Shown here one piece after another: positions 653-12,553 of a DNA stretch of 64,000 bases. Made by a program: the position numbers and the translations under genes. The notes under the pieces are model-generated. The model worked only from the letters and a program-made list of their open reading frames with translations, was not told the origin of the DNA and did no database searches. Source of the stretch: Escherichia phage dhabil; the sequence record MN850621.1, one strand, 5' to 3'. Each line of letters starts with the position of its first letter. Position 1 is the stretch's first letter.

Positions 653-757
653 TTACTTTTTAAAGTGTGCTGCTATTAAACCTATAGCTAAGCCCGTCGC
701 CAGGCCTAGGATAACAGCAAAGATACAGAGTAACAAGAACTCGACTCCAAGGCTCAT
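653..757 (-). CDS. small hydrophobic peptide, 34 aa
   Basis: ATG overlaps the gene 52 stop (ATGA); translation MSLGVEFLLLCIFAVILGLATGLAIGLIAAHFKK; below ORF-track size cut-off. Confidence 0.3.
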   Translation of the reverse strand: MSLGVEFLLLCIFAVILGLATGLAIGLIAAHFKK

Positions 758-2133
758 AGAGCCTCCAAATCTTTAACATACTCAGTTACAACATCAGTGG
801 TTTTCCAGTATTGATGCTCTTCTTTCTTAGCCTTGGCTTCCAAAGCCAGTTTCTTAGCTTCATCGGACGTGATATGGAAAATGTTCATTGCTACGAGTTT
901 ATCAGCATATTCACCGTAGACTTTATTACCGGCCAATTCTTCGGTTAAAACCTTACGGGTCTTACCTTGGATAACCACTACACCGTCAATAACATCTTTA
1001 ATGAATGTAGCTTTAGCCAATGCCAGTTTGAAAGCTTCTTCGGTTTCGATGATTTTACCATCAATACGTTTTTGTACAAAGGTCTTACGGACCTCAACGA
1101 AATCACGAATCAGTTCAACTGCATCTTCGTAAACCTTAAGTTTACCTTTCTCATTAATGACGGTCAGGTTTTGCGAACGACGTTCGATTAACCCGAAGTC
1201 CTTCATGATTTTTTCGTGCTTCTTATTTTCTTCAGTAGGCAATTCATATTCTTTACGAATCTTAACCTTGAAGCCGAAACCATTCTCGTCACAGTCGTCA
1301 TCATACGTGATATACCCTTTGTCTTCTAAAGGGTCCAACACCTTAGCCACGTATGTTTCACGGTCATATTTGTACGGGATTTCTGTAATATGCATTTGGG
1401 TTCGAGAGGTGAACTTATACGTTCCACGAATCTCATAACTTCCAGGTTCAATCTCAACAACTTCACCACGGAATTCCGGATAAGCTACCTTAGGCTTGGT
1501 TACGCGTTTTTCTTGAAGAACCTGCAATACAGCTTTCTTAACAGAATCAAAACTATGAGGAAGAATATTAGTTGCATAACCAGTTGCAATACCGGAAATA
1601 CCATTAAGAAGAACAGTAGGAATAATAGGCAGATAAAAAGCTGGTGGCTTATGTTCGACATCCGCATGAACCGGAGCATATTCTGTATCCTTATAAACCT
1701 TTGCGAAATTAGTTCCAATTCGTGCAAAAATATAACGAGAGGCTGCAGCCTTTTGAACTAATCGAGAACCAAAGTTACCTTGGCCATCCAACAGTGGGAA
1801 GTTGTTGTTCCATGTGTTAGCCATCAAAGCCCCTGCTTCCTGAGCAGAACCTTCACCATGGTGATATCCAAGGTCGGCTACACCACCTGCAATAGAAGCT
1901 AGTTTGTGGAATTTTTCTTTATTACCACGAGCCATATCAAGACAACGAGCAACTACAAAACGTTGTACAGGTTTAAAGCCATCAATCATATTTGGAATGG
2001 CGCGGTTTTCGACAGTATACATTGCGTAAGCCAGCGCTTCGTTGTCGATAATGCTTTTTAAGTCACGACGAGTAAAAGCGTCATCGTAAACATCTAAGGA
2101 TTGTTTAAAAAGGGTATCAATTACATCAGCCAT
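754..2133 (-). CDS. 52: DNA topoisomerase II medium subunit (GyrA-like)
   Basis: 459-aa ORF, ATG at 2131-2133; type II topoisomerase A-subunit-like; position downstream of ac/stp as in T4. Confidence 0.9.
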   Translation of the reverse strand: MADVIDTLFKQSLDVYDDAFTRRDLKSIIDNEALAYAMYTVENRAIPNMIDGFKPVQRFVVARCLDMARGNKEKFHKLASIAGGVADLGYHHGEGSAQEAGALMANTWNNNFPLLDGQGNFGSRLVQKAAASRYIFARIGTNFAKVYKDTEYAPVHADVEHKPPAFYLPIIPTVLLNGISGIATGYATNILPHSFDSVKKAVLQVLQEKRVTKPKVAYPEFRGEVVEIEPGSYEIRGTYKFTSRTQMHITEIPYKYDRETYVAKVLDPLEDKGYITYDDDCDENGFGFKVKIRKEYELPTEENKKHEKIMKDFGLIERRSQNLTVINEKGKLKVYEDAVELIRDFVEVRKTFVQKRIDGKIIETEEAFKLALAKATFIKDVIDGVVVIQGKTRKVLTEELAGNKVYGEYADKLVAMNIFHITSDEAKKLALEAKAKKEEHQYWKTTDVVTEYVKDLEAL

Positions 2134-2520: not shown

Positions 2521-2969
2521 TAGTAAGCCTGCAGAACGAATTTGAAGTTATCGGCCAACATACGGTTCATTTCTTCCAGTGTCTGGAGGTCTGAACTATG
2601 GTTGCGAGTGAAAGCCATAGCGATTTGACCTTTACCGAAGCCTGTAGTCAGTGGTTTCATTTTAGAAGCCGGCACATAAAGAACTTCATACACAACACCA
2701 TTCACTGCCATAGTGCGAGCTGATTGTGAACGTTTCTTACGAATGTTAGCTACGATACCATCAAGACCTTGAGCTGAACGTTGGTTGCCGACATAAAAGC
2801 GTGCAGCTACGACACGAGAATCTGCTTCACCTTTAACAAAGAAGTAGAAGCCTGGCTGGGCTGAGATTTCTTTAGAAGGCTTACCATTTTGGTATTCGCC
2901 ATTCTTAACATAAGCAACAGTAGTAGCACCAGCAGACAGAACGTTACCGCGAGTCATATAAGTATTCAT
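2520..2969 (-). CDS. ndd: Ndd-like nucleoid disruption protein
   Basis: 149 aa, ATG at 2967-2969; size and position immediately upstream of stp match T4 ndd. Confidence 0.55.
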
Positions 2970-3010
2970 ATCAATTTCCTCAGTAGATTAATGTTTTGTT
3001 ATCCAGTCAA

Positions 3011-3047
3011 CGAGAACCATTATAACATGATTCTCGAGGTTGTAAAC
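3011..3047 (-). promoter_or_regulatory. early promoter with flanking inverted repeat
   Basis: Minus GTTTAC (3042-3047), N17, TATAAT (3019-3024); arms cgagaa/ttctcg flank the -10. Confidence 0.55.
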
Positions 3048-3391
3048 TATTTTTGTAGCTGTTCTAAAATAAATCCGCTAGTATAAAAGGGAGCATTATA
3101 AACCTTGTTCAGTGGGTTCAAAGCCTGTCCGTAAGTATCACGTAGTTCTTTGATAACGTTTTCATAACTCACGTAGTAAGCACTATGATAACCAGGGTCC
3201 ATACTCATACGAAATTTAATGAACCGATAAAAGCCTGTTTCCGGGTCTTGAACGAAAACGAAATCAGCACTCGTCATAATCTTTGAATGTACGCCGGGAA
3301 TCATACTTTGATTGAATGCCACCGATGCATCCTGAAGGCTGAGTTGTTTAAAGAACATTACCTTAGCATTACCAAAAAAGATTTTAGACAT
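3047..3391 (-). CDS. hypothetical protein, 114 aa
   Basis: ATG at 3389-3391; no motif recognised. Confidence 0.45.
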   Translation of the reverse strand: MSKIFFGNAKVMFFKQLSLQDASVAFNQSMIPGVHSKIMTSADFVFVQDPETGFYRFIKFRMSMDPGYHSAYYVSYENVIKELRDTYGQALNPLNKVYNAPFYTSGFILEQLQK

Positions 3392-3405
3392 GATAATTTC
3401 CTCAA

Positions 3406-3651
3406 TTATTCAGGGTCAACTGCGCCATCCCACAGGTCAACTTCTTCTGATGATTCCATCAGTTCATCAACTGTGAAGCACTCAGTATTATTTTCAATAG
3501 CAAAACGCTTTTGATAAAAAGGATAATCCAAACAGTTTTCAGTACGAATAGGCCGCTCGCTATTATCCATTAAAGGAGAAATACGAATCAATTGTTGACC
3601 ATTACCTAAGACAAATTTTTCACCAACTGCGATATCTTTAAAAAGTTTCAT
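3406..3651 (-). CDS. hypothetical protein, 81 aa
   Basis: ORF-track start is TTG at 3693; moved to ATG 3649-3651 with SD GAGGAAAA. Confidence 0.4.
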   Translation of the reverse strand: MKLFKDIAVGEKFVLGNGQQLIRISPLMDNSERPIRTENCLDYPFYQKRFAIENNTECFTVDELMESSEEVDLWDGAVDPE

Positions 3652-3777
3652 AATATTTTCCTCAGAAGTTAAAGAATACACGTACATGGTCAATCATAAA
3701 AACTATTGGGAAAATGCTCAATACAACCAATAACACAAACATGTTCCAAATTGCTTTAAGTAAGTTTTTCATAATCA

Positions 3778-3827
3778 TCTCCATTAGTTGATAGGTCTAT
3801 AATATCATGTCTAATGGAGATGTAAAC
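3778..3827 (-). promoter_or_regulatory. promoter cassette with RBS-pairing stem
   Basis: Minus GTTTAC (3822-3827), N17, TATTAT (3799-3804); 10-bp arms 3778-3787 / 3811-3820, right arm contains the SD GGAG. Confidence 0.6.
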
Positions 3828-4225
3828 ATTGATTGTTATCATTATTACTGGAAATAATATCACTCATATTAAGCGCCAGAACCTACTCAAACCCTGCGCT
3901 CCCAATTTCAAGGTTAGAGCGGTTGTCAAAGATTTTGCACCGACCTTTAACCTGGCTGGATGCGTAGAACTCCGCAGTTTCTTGAACATCAAAAGCATAC
4001 AACCTTGTTTCTAAATCGCGATAACGTGGTTCGCCGTTAAGTTCAAACCAAATCATAATAGTTACTGGGATCATTTTCGGGTTCCTTGTTTGTTGGTGTA
4101 TGAGTACTATAACATGCTAAATCTGAGATGTAAACTGATTTATGCTAATTTCCACAACAATAAACTAAAGCATATACAAATAATTGGAATACAAGTCATC
4201 CAAATAAGGCACCACGTTTTGCTAC

Positions 4226-8791: not shown

Positions 8792-8995
8792 TCAATTCAG
8801 GTTACGTTTAAAAATATCTGCTACTTCAAGGAGCTCTTCCTTAGTAGCGATGTCGTTGAGTATTTTATACCGTATTTCCTTAAAGCGTTCTTTAAAATCT
8901 TCAGCTGCATTGATATCAAAAAATCTCTGGATTAGCCGGAATTCTTTATGGACAGCTTTATCGAACAAATCAATGTTGACTTTAAAGTTTGTCAT
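8792..8995 (-). CDS. hypothetical protein, 67 aa
   Basis: ATG at 8993-8995; position of T4 rIIA.1. Confidence 0.45.
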   Translation of the reverse strand: MTNFKVNIDLFDKAVHKEFRLIQRFFDINAAEDFKERFKEIRYKILNDIATKEELLEVADIFKRNLN

Positions 8996-9305
8996 TTTTA
9001 ACTACCTCATGTTGAACATATTCTCTGGTAGAACCTAGTTCAGCCAGAATTCTTCTCATAGAACCCATTGTACTTTTGTGCTCTCTGTGGCGATACAATA
9101 TCTCTAGAACCTTTTCCTGGACAACGGGAGAGAGCGCCTGGTTATCTTTAATCTTTAAGGCAATAGATTTTACAGCCTTAAGGTATTCTAGTCCCTTACC
9201 GCTTGTAATCACTACTCCTTCATCTTTACAGTTACGAATAGCGGTTTCCATAAAGGATAAAGCCAAGTTGTCAGTGTTCACTATACTATTATCTTGCATA
9301 ATCAT
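8982..9305 (-). CDS. hypothetical protein, 107 aa
   Basis: ATG at 9303-9305; own promoter upstream. Confidence 0.45.
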   Translation of the reverse strand: MIMQDNSIVNTDNLALSFMETAIRNCKDEGVVITSGKGLEYLKAVKSIALKIKDNQALSPVVQEKVLEILYRHREHKSTMGSMRRILAELGSTREYVQHEVVKNDKL

Positions 9306-9324
9306 ATTCTCACCTCTTAGAGAA

Positions 9325-9353
9325 TCATATCACACTTTTAATCTGTTGTAAAC
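9325..9353 (-). promoter_or_regulatory. sigma70-like early promoter
   Basis: Minus GTTTAC (9348-9353), N17, TGaTATGAT extended -10 (9325-9330). Confidence 0.5.
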
Positions 9354-9375
9354 CCCGAAAAGGGCCCGTAGGCCC
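9352..9375 (-). terminator. intrinsic terminator
   Basis: Stem GGGCC/GGCCC 9362-9375 followed on minus strand by TTTTCGGGG. Confidence 0.5.
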
Positions 9376-9575
9376 TTAATTATTCAATTTTGTAGACTTG
9401 ACCTCGAACTTGATAAAATTCGCCTTCCCAGGTTTCTACCATAATGGTCACATACTCTGCGAACAAAGGTCTCTTCTCGGCCCAGAGGTATCCAAATTCA
9501 CCGGTGGCTAGCGTTATCCAGTACTTTCTCATAAAGTCTCCTAATTGTATGGCACTCATGTACCATACATATTTA

Positions 9576-11393
9576 TTACGACATCCAGGCCTTACGGAGT
9601 TGAGGGTCGTTCCCGAGGAGCATTTCGAACTGTTCTTTCCAATCTTCAGGCAATTGAACTACATCAAATTTAGGGTCTTGAATCATTCGACGGTATTCAG
9701 CTTTCTCAAGAGAACCTAAACCTTTAATATATCGAATAGAATGTTTCGGTAGAGAGTCCTTGGCTTTGGTATAACTAGGAACATCATAAAACCATTCTTG
9801 TTCTTTACCGACCTGGGCAATAATCACCGGAGTTTTACAGAATCTCACTCGACCTTGTTCGAACAATTCAGGCCATTGACTAAAGAAGGCTAGCAATGAT
9901 GGATAAATCGAACCAGTACCATCCACATCAGCATCGGTCATAATGGCGATATTACGATAGTTGGTTTTATCTGCAGGTTCGCCAATAACCAATCCAGTGA
10001 TTGCACAGATATCAAATAGTTCCTTATTCTTCATGATATCTGTTGCTGTCATTCCCCAGGTATTCATAACCTTACCACGTAATGGATAACCACCTTGAAG
10101 GTCTTTATTACGGACTTCAATGAAAGGACCCATAGCGGAATCACCTTCAGTCAAGAACAGGGTTGTATCGGCATCTTTACCGTATAAGTTAGCTTTAATA
10201 TGCTTATGGACCTTGGCTTTAGAAGCTTTCTTAGCAGCTTTAGTTTCAGCAGCCTTTTCAGCTGCTAATTTACGTGCTAAAGCAGCTTCGACGATAGGCA
10301 TAATAAGCCCTTCGTTTTTAAGAATATACTGTGAGATTTTCTTTGCATCAATTTGAATATGATTACGAATTTCACCGAATGGTGACGTCAAACGCTCTTT
10401 AGTCTGGGAATCAAAACGCATATTACTCATATCACGAATGAACATTACCATCGTAAGGCATTCTTTAACACGAGCCTTTGTTACTTCAATTCCACGATAT
10501 TTCTTTTTAATACCAGGCAGAAGGTGCTCACAAATATCATCGAATACACATTCAACGTGGTGACCACCATTCTTAGTGTGGATATTGTTTACATAAGTCA
10601 GTTGACGGAAACCATCTGGAGATGTAGTAAATGCCATTGAGACATTATCGGTTTCTTGAATTACTACATCTTTACCAAATTGATTAGCATACTTTTTAAA
10701 GTTACCATCTACTTTTTTACCATTAAAAGTAAATTGGATACTAGGATAAATTACAGCTAGGGTTTTAAGACGATCTAAAGTAATATCCAGATAAATTTGG
10801 GTCAAACTATTTTCTTCGAAATGGTTAAAGTCTGGAGTGAATATAACCGAAGTGCCTTTATCTTTGGATTTCTTAGTAGTCCAACCTTTGTTTTCCATTC
10901 CGTTAGAACAGTTAACAGTAATCTCATTCTCACCATCAGAGGTGATGCCTGTGAACAAAACGGAGAAGATATTAGTTAAACTACTACCGACACCATTCAT
11001 GCCACCTGTCTTACGCTCTGCGTCATCTCCAAAGTTACCACCAGCCTTTGGAATAGTCCATGCAGCTACAGGACCTGGAATTTGTTCACCGTTTTGGTCA
11101 GTAACCATTGCTTGTGGAATACCACGGCCATTATCAGAAACTGAAACCTGATTATTCTTAATTCGGACATCAATTTTGTTTGCGAATTTAAAATTAGTAC
11201 GAATAGCTTCATCGACAGAGTTATCAATGATTTCATCAATTAATTTAACTAGCCCTGGAACATAGTTCACCTGTGTAAAATTACCGAACAGGAATCGACC
11301 ATGGGCTTCATTAGCACTAGAGCCAATATACATCCCACTACGTTTTTTGATATGTTCAATGTCGGACAGTACTTTAATTTCATTCTTAATCAT
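9576..11393 (-). CDS. 39: DNA topoisomerase II large subunit (GyrB-like ATPase), continuous 39+60 ORF
   Basis: 605 aa, ATG at 11391-11393; GHKL ATPase plus TOPRIM region; length equals the sum of T4 gp39 and gp60, with no interruption. Confidence 0.9.
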   Translation of the reverse strand: MIKNEIKVLSDIEHIKKRSGMYIGSSANEAHGRFLFGNFTQVNYVPGLVKLIDEIIDNSVDEAIRTNFKFANKIDVRIKNNQVSVSDNGRGIPQAMVTDQNGEQIPGPVAAWTIPKAGGNFGDDAERKTGGMNGVGSSLTNIFSVLFTGITSDGENEITVNCSNGMENKGWTTKKSKDKGTSVIFTPDFNHFEENSLTQIYLDITLDRLKTLAVIYPSIQFTFNGKKVDGNFKKYANQFGKDVVIQETDNVSMAFTTSPDGFRQLTYVNNIHTKNGGHHVECVFDDICEHLLPGIKKKYRGIEVTKARVKECLTMVMFIRDMSNMRFDSQTKERLTSPFGEIRNHIQIDAKKISQYILKNEGLIMPIVEAALARKLAAEKAAETKAAKKASKAKVHKHIKANLYGKDADTTLFLTEGDSAMGPFIEVRNKDLQGGYPLRGKVMNTWGMTATDIMKNKELFDICAITGLVIGEPADKTNYRNIAIMTDADVDGTGSIYPSLLAFFSQWPELFEQGRVRFCKTPVIIAQVGKEQEWFYDVPSYTKAKDSLPKHSIRYIKGLGSLEKAEYRRMIQDPKFDVVQLPEDWKEQFEMLLGNDPQLRKAWMS

Positions 11394-11417
11394 GTTATTT
11401 CCTCATGTAGTAGGAGA

Positions 11418-11442
11418 ATATTATCCCATTTCACTTAAAGCA
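11418..11442 (-). promoter_or_regulatory. MotA-dependent middle promoter for gene 39
   Basis: Minus ttTATGCTTTA (MotA box TGCTTTA, plus 11436-11442), 12 bp, TAATAT (11418-11423), then SD GAGGAAA and ATG. Confidence 0.55.
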
Positions 11443-11459
11443 TAAAAGGGCCGAAGCCC
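11441..11459 (-). terminator. intrinsic terminator, UUCG loop
   Basis: Stem GGGC/GCCC 11448-11459 with loop cgaa, followed on minus strand by TTTTAT. Confidence 0.5.
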
Positions 11460-11720
11460 TTAATCAAATCGGATGGTCGACTTTTTAAAGAATAACCCAG
11501 AACAAACTGTTCCTTCAACCCTTTTACCTGTCGGACCTACAGCAATAAAGCCTGTACGTTGGAAATCATCTTCAGAACAGCCAAATAGGTTGTATCCTGT
11601 GATTTGGATTTGTTTGTAGCCATTTGCATCCAATACACGGGCGGCATTATCGGCATCAGTACAACCAACCAACGAAACTGCTAGTACCAGAGCTGCAATA
11701 GAACGATTAACGTATTTCAT
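11460..11720 (-). CDS. putative lipoprotein, 86 aa
   Basis: Signal peptide with lipobox LVGC near the N-terminus. Confidence 0.5.
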   Translation of the reverse strand: MKYVNRSIAALVLAVSLVGCTDADNAARVLDANGYKQIQITGYNLFGCSEDDFQRTGFIAVGPTGKRVEGTVCSGLFFKKSTIRFD

Positions 11721-11904: not shown

Positions 11905-12342
11905 TTATTCCTTAAAGTGTGCTTTCAGCATCTGGTAAACGGTCCAGGCTTCAGAGTTATTAGAGATAGTGATTTTAGTCAAAGGGAAATCACTCGGTTC
12001 ATATGGGGCTGCATCTTCAGACTGGTCTTCGTCTTCAGAGAAACCATCTTCGGCCCATTCGTCTTCACTGTCAACTACAACCATTTCCGTAAAGAATTTA
12101 CGCTCGCTTGGATATAAAACCATATCAATGTTATCGCCATAAGCCAAGTCTGCATTAAATACATATCCAGCCGATACTCTAACAGGGCAAAAACCTTCAG
12201 AATTGACAATAATATCTGCTATAGAAGAATTATCAGGATTTCTAATATTATGGGAATTCAGCTTACGGAATTCAGCTTCTGCCGCGTCATCTTTAAAATA
12301 GTACCATTTACCTTTTTCAAATTCGAGTTCTTGATTAAGCAT
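11905..12342 (-). CDS. hypothetical acidic protein, 145 aa
   Basis: ORF-track start 12435 overlaps the upstream gene; moved to ATG 12340-12342 with SD GGAAGGAAA. Confidence 0.4.
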   Translation of the reverse strand: MLNQELEFEKGKWYYFKDDAAEAEFRKLNSHNIRNPDNSSIADIIVNSEGFCPVRVSAGYVFNADLAYGDNIDMVLYPSERKFFTEMVVVDSEDEWAEDGFSEDEDQSEDAAPYEPSDFPLTKITISNNSEAWTVYQMLKAHFKE

Positions 12343-12553
12343 TGTAAGTTTCCTTCCAGAAGTCGGTGCCTTCAGCAGTGATTTCACGGAACACTGCATA
12401 GATAGGGTTTTTATCGCCTTGATTTTCGTATACATAAACCGACGATAAATGAGAAAACGTATCAGAATGTTCCTTTTGAACCACGATTAAATCAGGGTTG
12501 AACAGAACGTCTTCAAATTCTTCACGAGTCGAGTTCACAGTAACTTTAGCCAT
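12335..12553 (-). CDS. hypothetical protein, 72 aa
   Basis: ATG at 12551-12553. Confidence 0.45.
   Translation of the reverse strand: MAKVTVNSTREEFEDVLFNPDLIVVQKEHSDTFSHLSSVYVYENQGDKNPIYAVFREITAEGTDFWKETYNA

Follow-up and report, generated by a model that had tools for sequence, protein, structure and literature searches.

Gene 39 of Escherichia phage dhabil is almost certainly an ordinary Dhakavirus gene 39, never interrupted, that encodes the whole GyrB-like large subunit of DNA topoisomerase II. We analyzed it in the window, a 64,000-nucleotide stretch of the sequence record MN850621.1. The uninterrupted state of the gene is confirmed as a real feature that a preliminary description of the window had read correctly, and it was already known. 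The gene lies on the (-) strand:

9576..11393, (-) strand: gene 39, complete DNA topoisomerase II large subunit (ATPase plus Toprim, GyrB-like), 605 aa, assigned from the ORF, PHROG and PDB matches and identity to phage dhaeg.

In the ORF listing of the window, this interval is exactly one ORF, with an ATG start, 605 aa and zero internal stops; the preliminary description had given both its coordinates and its length exactly. The N-terminus, MIKNEIK, is that of T4 and T6 gp39. PHROG 543, "DNA topoisomerase II large subunit", matches the protein over residues 1–605 (E=1.7e-281).

One reading frame spans both parts of the T4 subunit

T4 gp39 (516 aa) and gp60 (160 aa, with the annotated 50-nt bypass skipped) were translated from NC_000866 and compared with the window protein. 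By BLASTP, window residues 1–474 match T4 gp39 1–473 at 77% identity (722 bits, E=0), and residues 474–605 match gp60 28–159 at 75% identity (220 bits, E=3e-73). Both matches lie far beyond chance. Together with a three-way alignment, they bear out the reading that one ORF spans both T4 parts. Homology of the C-terminal residues to gp60, on which the preliminary description had made its reading depend, holds at 75% identity across 132 aligned residues. Its figure of 90 such residues was too low; the gp60-homologous portion is actually ~131 residues long, with 113 of them downstream of the point equivalent to the bypass.

The MAFFT alignment took in the window protein, T6 gp39, and the concatenated T4 gp39 and gp60. 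A single T4-only block of 71 aa emerged, made up of the last 43 aa of gp39 and the first 28 aa of gp60, and this block is absent from both the window and the T6 proteins. T6 gene 39, at 1818 nt and 605 aa, has the same length as the window gene. The two proteins share 78% identity and the same domain order and are colinear apart from two single-residue gaps; T6 gp39, ~22% divergent in sequence, has no gap relative to the window protein at the T4 split site. The alignment against T4 gp39, gp60 and T6, which had been proposed as a check, shows the T2/T6-type arrangement.

The best solved structure among PDB matches is 8ylu_C, aligned from window residues 1–605 to residues 1–604 (E=0). We take chain C of 8ylu to be, presumably, the large subunit of T6: the next match, 8yo3 chain C, is named as an artificial T4 gp39–gp60 fusion, and both are entries of the same cryo-EM study of T4 and T6 (PMC11461880).

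Domain organization and predicted enzyme

The protein carries the following domains, in order from its N-terminus:

10827..11255, (-) strand: GHKL ATPase domain, aa 47–189, Pfam HATPase_c, E=1.9e-10, 41.6 bits against a cut-off of 26.4.
10239..10646, (-) strand: transducer domain, aa 250–385, Pfam DNA_gyraseB (PF00204), E=1.9e-15, 57.2 bits against a cut-off of 27.
9837..10163, (-) strand: Toprim domain, aa 411–519, continuous, assigned from motifs and from end-to-end alignment with T6, T4 and 8ylu_C.
9645..9833, (-) strand: C-terminal Toprim-associated region, aa 521–583, wholly in the gp60-equivalent part, Pfam TOPRIM_C.

Sequence motifs are intact throughout. The ATPase domain has an N-box, EIIDNSVDE (aa 54–62), a G1 motif, DNGRGIP (87–93), and a G2 motif, GGMNGVG (130–136), and the transducer domain has a QTK loop with its lysine (SQTKERL, aa 329–335). 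Within the Toprim domain, the catalytic Glu (TEGDSA, aa 415–420) falls in the gp39-equivalent part and the acidic DxDxD cluster (TDADVDG, aa 486–492) in the gp60-equivalent part. PHROG 7229, "DNA topoisomerase II", covers aa 450–605 (E=6e-61). The Pfam scores for Toprim (17.7 bits, cut-off 23.1) and TOPRIM_C (22.7 bits, cut-off 29) both fall under their cut-offs, as is expected in a divergent phage clade. In our reading of the sequence, the Toprim motifs and a full-length structural homologue outweigh these scores.

A gene for the cleavage subunit lies ~7.4 kb downstream on the same strand:

754..2133, (-) strand: gene 52 homologue, GyrA-like DNA-cleavage partner, 459 aa, PHROG 551 "DNA topoisomerase II", E=3.8e-208 over aa 20–459.

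The marks of a B-type subunit are all present, namely the ATPase motifs, the transducer QTK lysine, the Toprim Glu and DxD, and a gene for an A-type partner. Window gp39 and gp52 would form a T2/T6-type two-subunit enzyme, an A2B2 heterotetramer, in which ATP would be bound and hydrolyzed in gp39 and the Toprim E/DxD residues would coordinate Mg2+ for DNA cleavage by gp52. Both the activity and the quaternary structure are inferred from the 78% identity to the T6 protein, which has been characterized in structure as well as in biochemistry; relaxation activity of T6 gp39 has been reported (PMC11461880). The genome, as read here, carries a standard two-subunit T-even topoisomerase II, a result of little significance beyond annotation.

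The site of the T4 cassette is unoccupied

In T4, a ~1.1-kb cassette lies inside the Toprim domain and comprises the gp39 C-terminal extension, mobA, 60.1 and the gp60 N-terminal extension. The last of these carries a nascent-peptide signal; a UAG follows the take-off GGA, and then comes the 50-nt gap. The split leaves the catalytic Glu in gp39 but places the DxD cluster in gp60, just ahead of the bypass, whereas the Toprim domain of the window protein is continuous. According to Manning & Atkins, MobA travels as a 1.1-kb mobile cassette, which independent insertions have brought to one and the same position in several clades of myoviruses; it gives ORF1 a C-terminal extension and ORF2 an N-terminal extension plus bypass, and swaps 55–75 nt of the gene for a cassette-borne homologous region (10.1101/2022.08.31.505936). 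Earlier, Edgell et al. (2010) had listed mobA as splitting the T4 topoisomerase gene relative to related phages (PMC2988022). A 2024 cryo-EM study in Nat Commun gave the T2 and T6 topoisomerases two subunits and that of T4 three, with the ~70-aa T4 insertion hanging off the Toprim domain (PMC11461880).

The corresponding positions in the window are these:

9969..9974, (-) strand: point equivalent to the T4 39/60 split, between A474 and D475, from MAFFT and codon coordinates.
9912..9974, (-) strand: unoccupied MobA-cassette site, the homR-equivalent stretch, from codons, T6 and T4 identity and the definitions of Manning & Atkins.

At 9969..9974, where T4 has 71 extra residues, mobA and 60.1, the window has none of these. 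The equivalent of the T4 take-off and landing sites is the uninterrupted run of codons GAT GGT ACT GGT (D491 G492 T493 G494, 9923..9912), and the unoccupied site ends at the codons that match take-off and landing (G492/T493, 9920..9915). In the alignment with T6 and T4, no residues of either extension are present at aa 474/475. The T4 nascent-peptide signal (gp60 residues ~14–29, KKYKLQNNVRRSIKSS) falls inside the T4-only block and has no window counterpart in that alignment. No endonuclease ORF is interposed, and the coding-strand ORFs of at least 40 aa at this place are only out-of-frame overlaps. A search of the whole window with the T4 take-off hairpin, GGATAGCCTTCGGGCTATCTATAG, returned no match at up to 3 mismatches. 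We found neither two ORFs split by an HNH gene or its remnant, nor the series of take-off GGA, stop codon, 50-nt gap bearing a 5' stem-loop, and matching landing GGA.

We also folded the 121-nt junction RNA. Its minimum free energy is -31.7 kcal/mol (z = -1.8), and 11 of 200 shuffled sequences are as stable. As a relic hairpin this fold was rejected: the z-score is unremarkable, and all that the centroid retains is a weak 5' helix with no relation to the bypass site. The junction check for remnants of the bypass hairpin that had been called for thus came back empty, by window search and RNA fold alike. Uninterrupted codons and the lack of a mobA-type ORF between the two parts likewise uphold the earlier statement that no gap, stop or inserted mobile element is present.

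In the mobA region (2780..3920), the T4 reference record NC_000866 is 11 nt longer than T4T, RB55, RB59 and further isolates of T4, to which it is only 98.7% identical. mobA is a pseudogene in the reference strain, where it is annotated as a 114-nt remnant; in other T4 isolates it is annotated as an intact homing endonuclease. Reference T4 gp39 also has MRLIRQTK in place of the MRFDSQTK found in T6 and the window.

The uninterrupted form is the rule among phages

We placed the window gene in a census of 50,697 phage records. With the window protein as tblastn query, gene 39 protein homologues were found in 2,216 records, in 2,055 of which the match lies in one place and covers at least 80% of the query. 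Megablast with the T4-type cassette, comprising mobA, 60.1, bypass and flanking extensions, detected it in only 43 records, each of them a close relative of T4 with a name as Escherichia, Tequatrovirus, Salmonella, Enterobacteria or Shigella phage. To mark MobA insertion at the protein level, whether past or present, we used the 43-aa gp39 C-terminal extension (CTE). CTE-like sequence occurs in 62 records, which comprise T4 relatives and Proteus, Acinetobacter and Aeromonas phages; no Dhakavirus is among the matches listed. An uninterrupted gene is the norm, and split genes are exceptional. Because the T4 split is so rare, the absence of a bypass in the window is expected, and it is already documented.

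Uninterrupted large-subunit genes have been termed "parental" (Manning & Atkins, 10.1101/2022.08.31.505936). The T4 arrangement of 39, mobA and 60 with its bypass is the derived state and goes back to a MobA homing-endonuclease cassette that landed within the Toprim domain; the window lineage was either never entered by the cassette or shows no trace of it. Since the uninterrupted form is parental and the T4 split derived, "never split" describes the window gene better than "gene 39 fused with gene 60", the wording of the preliminary description. The single ORF in that wording stands; the evolutionary direction that it implies is contradicted by the literature and by the census.

An uninterrupted gene could also arise by secondary re-fusion, or "hit and run", in which the gene was at one time split by a MobA/bypass cassette whose later, precise excision restored a single ORF. 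Such cases have been reported for some Aeromonas phages (Manning & Atkins clade 7, 10.1101/2022.08.31.505936), and in our census CTE-like sequences do lie inside Aeromonas phage topoisomerase genes. The reported hit-and-run genes, however, keep residues derived from the C- and N-terminal extensions, whereas the window gene has none and is colinear with T6 across the insertion site. The absence of Dhakavirus from the listed CTE-like matches also speaks against this history, as do the listed close relatives (JS98, IME08, dhaeg and others, at 89–97.5% DNA identity), which carry no kilobase-size insertion; even in phage 04086, gene 39 is 1818 nt. A perfectly scarless loss of the cassette would look identical to never having been invaded, and we consider re-fusion very unlikely here.

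It is improbable in the extreme that this copy of the gene is decaying or non-functional, or that an interruption is concealed by an artefact of assembly. No stops or frameshifts occur across the 1818 nt, and the ATPase, QTK and Toprim motifs are all intact. Protein identity to dhaeg is 99.0%, compared with 97.5% for the DNA of the surrounding 2.4 kb, and the same 605-aa ORF occurs in dozens of independently sequenced phages. The upstream hairpin, -10 box and Shine-Dalgarno sequence are conserved as well.

A possible target for MobA homing

Over the unoccupied site, 9912..9974, 44 of 63 nt are identical to T6, and 37 of 57 nt are identical to the cassette-borne homR of T4. The MobA nick site in T2 was placed, approximately, in the homR-equivalent region by way of Manning & Atkins (10.1101/2022.08.31.505936). 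It is conceivable, if rather doubtful, that 9912..9974 is a naive homing target, which a phage with an intact MobA cassette might, during mixed infection, nick and turn into the split/bypass form; if so, the known range of the MobA cassette would extend to the genus Dhakavirus. Conversely, the 30% DNA divergence from the T6 site might make Dhakavirus naturally immune to MobA homing. The window gene adds a further unoccupied site as a reference from which the limits and the homing range of the MobA/bypass cassette could be mapped.

The upstream control region is conserved

T4 and the window share the same architecture in the control region upstream of gene 39. Its elements in the window are as follows:

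11446..11461, (-) strand: terminator-like hairpin AAGGGCTTCGGCCCTT with a UUCG loop, followed by a T-rich tail, from the promoter and terminator scan.
11442..11436 and 11423..11418, (-) strand: candidate T4-type middle promoter, MotA-box-like TGCTTTA, 12-nt spacer and -10 TAATAT, by inspection.
11401..11404, (-) strand: Shine-Dalgarno sequence GAGG, 7 nt upstream of the ATG, from the sequence.

The hairpin lies between genes 39.1 and 39, overlaps the last two bases of the gene 39.1 stop codon (11462..11460), and is kept, with its G+C-rich stem, in T4, T6 and dhaeg. A comparison of Dhakavirus with Tequatrovirus shows one pair of the stem changed on both sides (GGGC..GCCC versus GGCC..GGCC), with pairing preserved. 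T4, T6 and dhaeg all keep the -10 block, ATAATATTC, without change. TGCTTTA, 12 nt and TAATAT form a putative middle promoter by comparison with the published MotA-box consensus. GAGGA is invariant across the window, T4, T6 and dhaeg. A scan for sigma-70 promoters returned 4 sites, fewer than the 7.8 found in shuffled sequence, and none upstream of gene 39.

Relatives, gene neighborhood and annotation

Megablast of 9300..11700 against the 50,697 records matched dhaeg and CLB_P2 at 97.5% DNA identity over 100% of the query, and IME08, JS98, JS10 and many others at 89–94%. The dhaeg record is classified in Tevenvirinae, genus Dhakavirus. Its 1818-nt counterpart of the window gene bears the label "DNA topoisomerase II large subunit", as does that of CLB_P2. 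The window belongs to the genome of a JS98-like T-even phage of the genus Dhakavirus. At the protein level, Dhakavirus gp39 differs from that of the window by point differences only, with 99.0% aa identity for dhaeg and 96.4% for JS98. The dhaeg protein is closer to the window than its DNA (97.5%), so most of the DNA differences are probably silent, consistent with purifying selection.

Gene order is common to dhaeg and the window, with rIIA and rIIA.1 downstream and the 39.1, zinc-ribbon (39.2), goF, cef and motB homologues upstream. The T6 neighborhood is similar, with rIIA.1 and rIIA downstream and 39.1, 39.2 and goF upstream, but a T6 ORF between 39.1 and 39.2 is missing from the window. 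rIIA.1 directly adjoins gene 39 in T6 and gene 60 in T4, whereas two small ORFs intervene in the window, at 9380..9559 (-), 59 aa, and 8982..9305 (-), 107 aa. These belong to PHROG 4369 and 5382, respectively, both with function unassigned, and are hypothetical proteins in dhaeg.

In JS98 (EF469154) and JS10 (EU863409), the full-length gene 39 is labeled "topoisomerase II large subunit N-terminal region". This label is transferred from T4 and is misleading for an unsplit gene. The correct annotation is a full-length large subunit, neither an "N-terminal region" nor a "39+60 fusion".

Two further observations concern the genes upstream. In phage 04086 (OR842557.1, 3594..4167), a Dhakavirus relative, the matched region spans 187 bases more than the 2401-base query. 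Since gene 39 of this phage is unchanged in length, the additional bases must fall elsewhere, and their probable place is 39.1 or its vicinity; the 04086 record leaves 39.1 unannotated. The goF-like ORF of the window, 11905..12435 (-), encodes 176 aa from its first ATG. Its true start is probably an internal Met (MLNQELEF...), because the PHROG match begins at residue 38 and the protein annotated in dhaeg has 145 aa.
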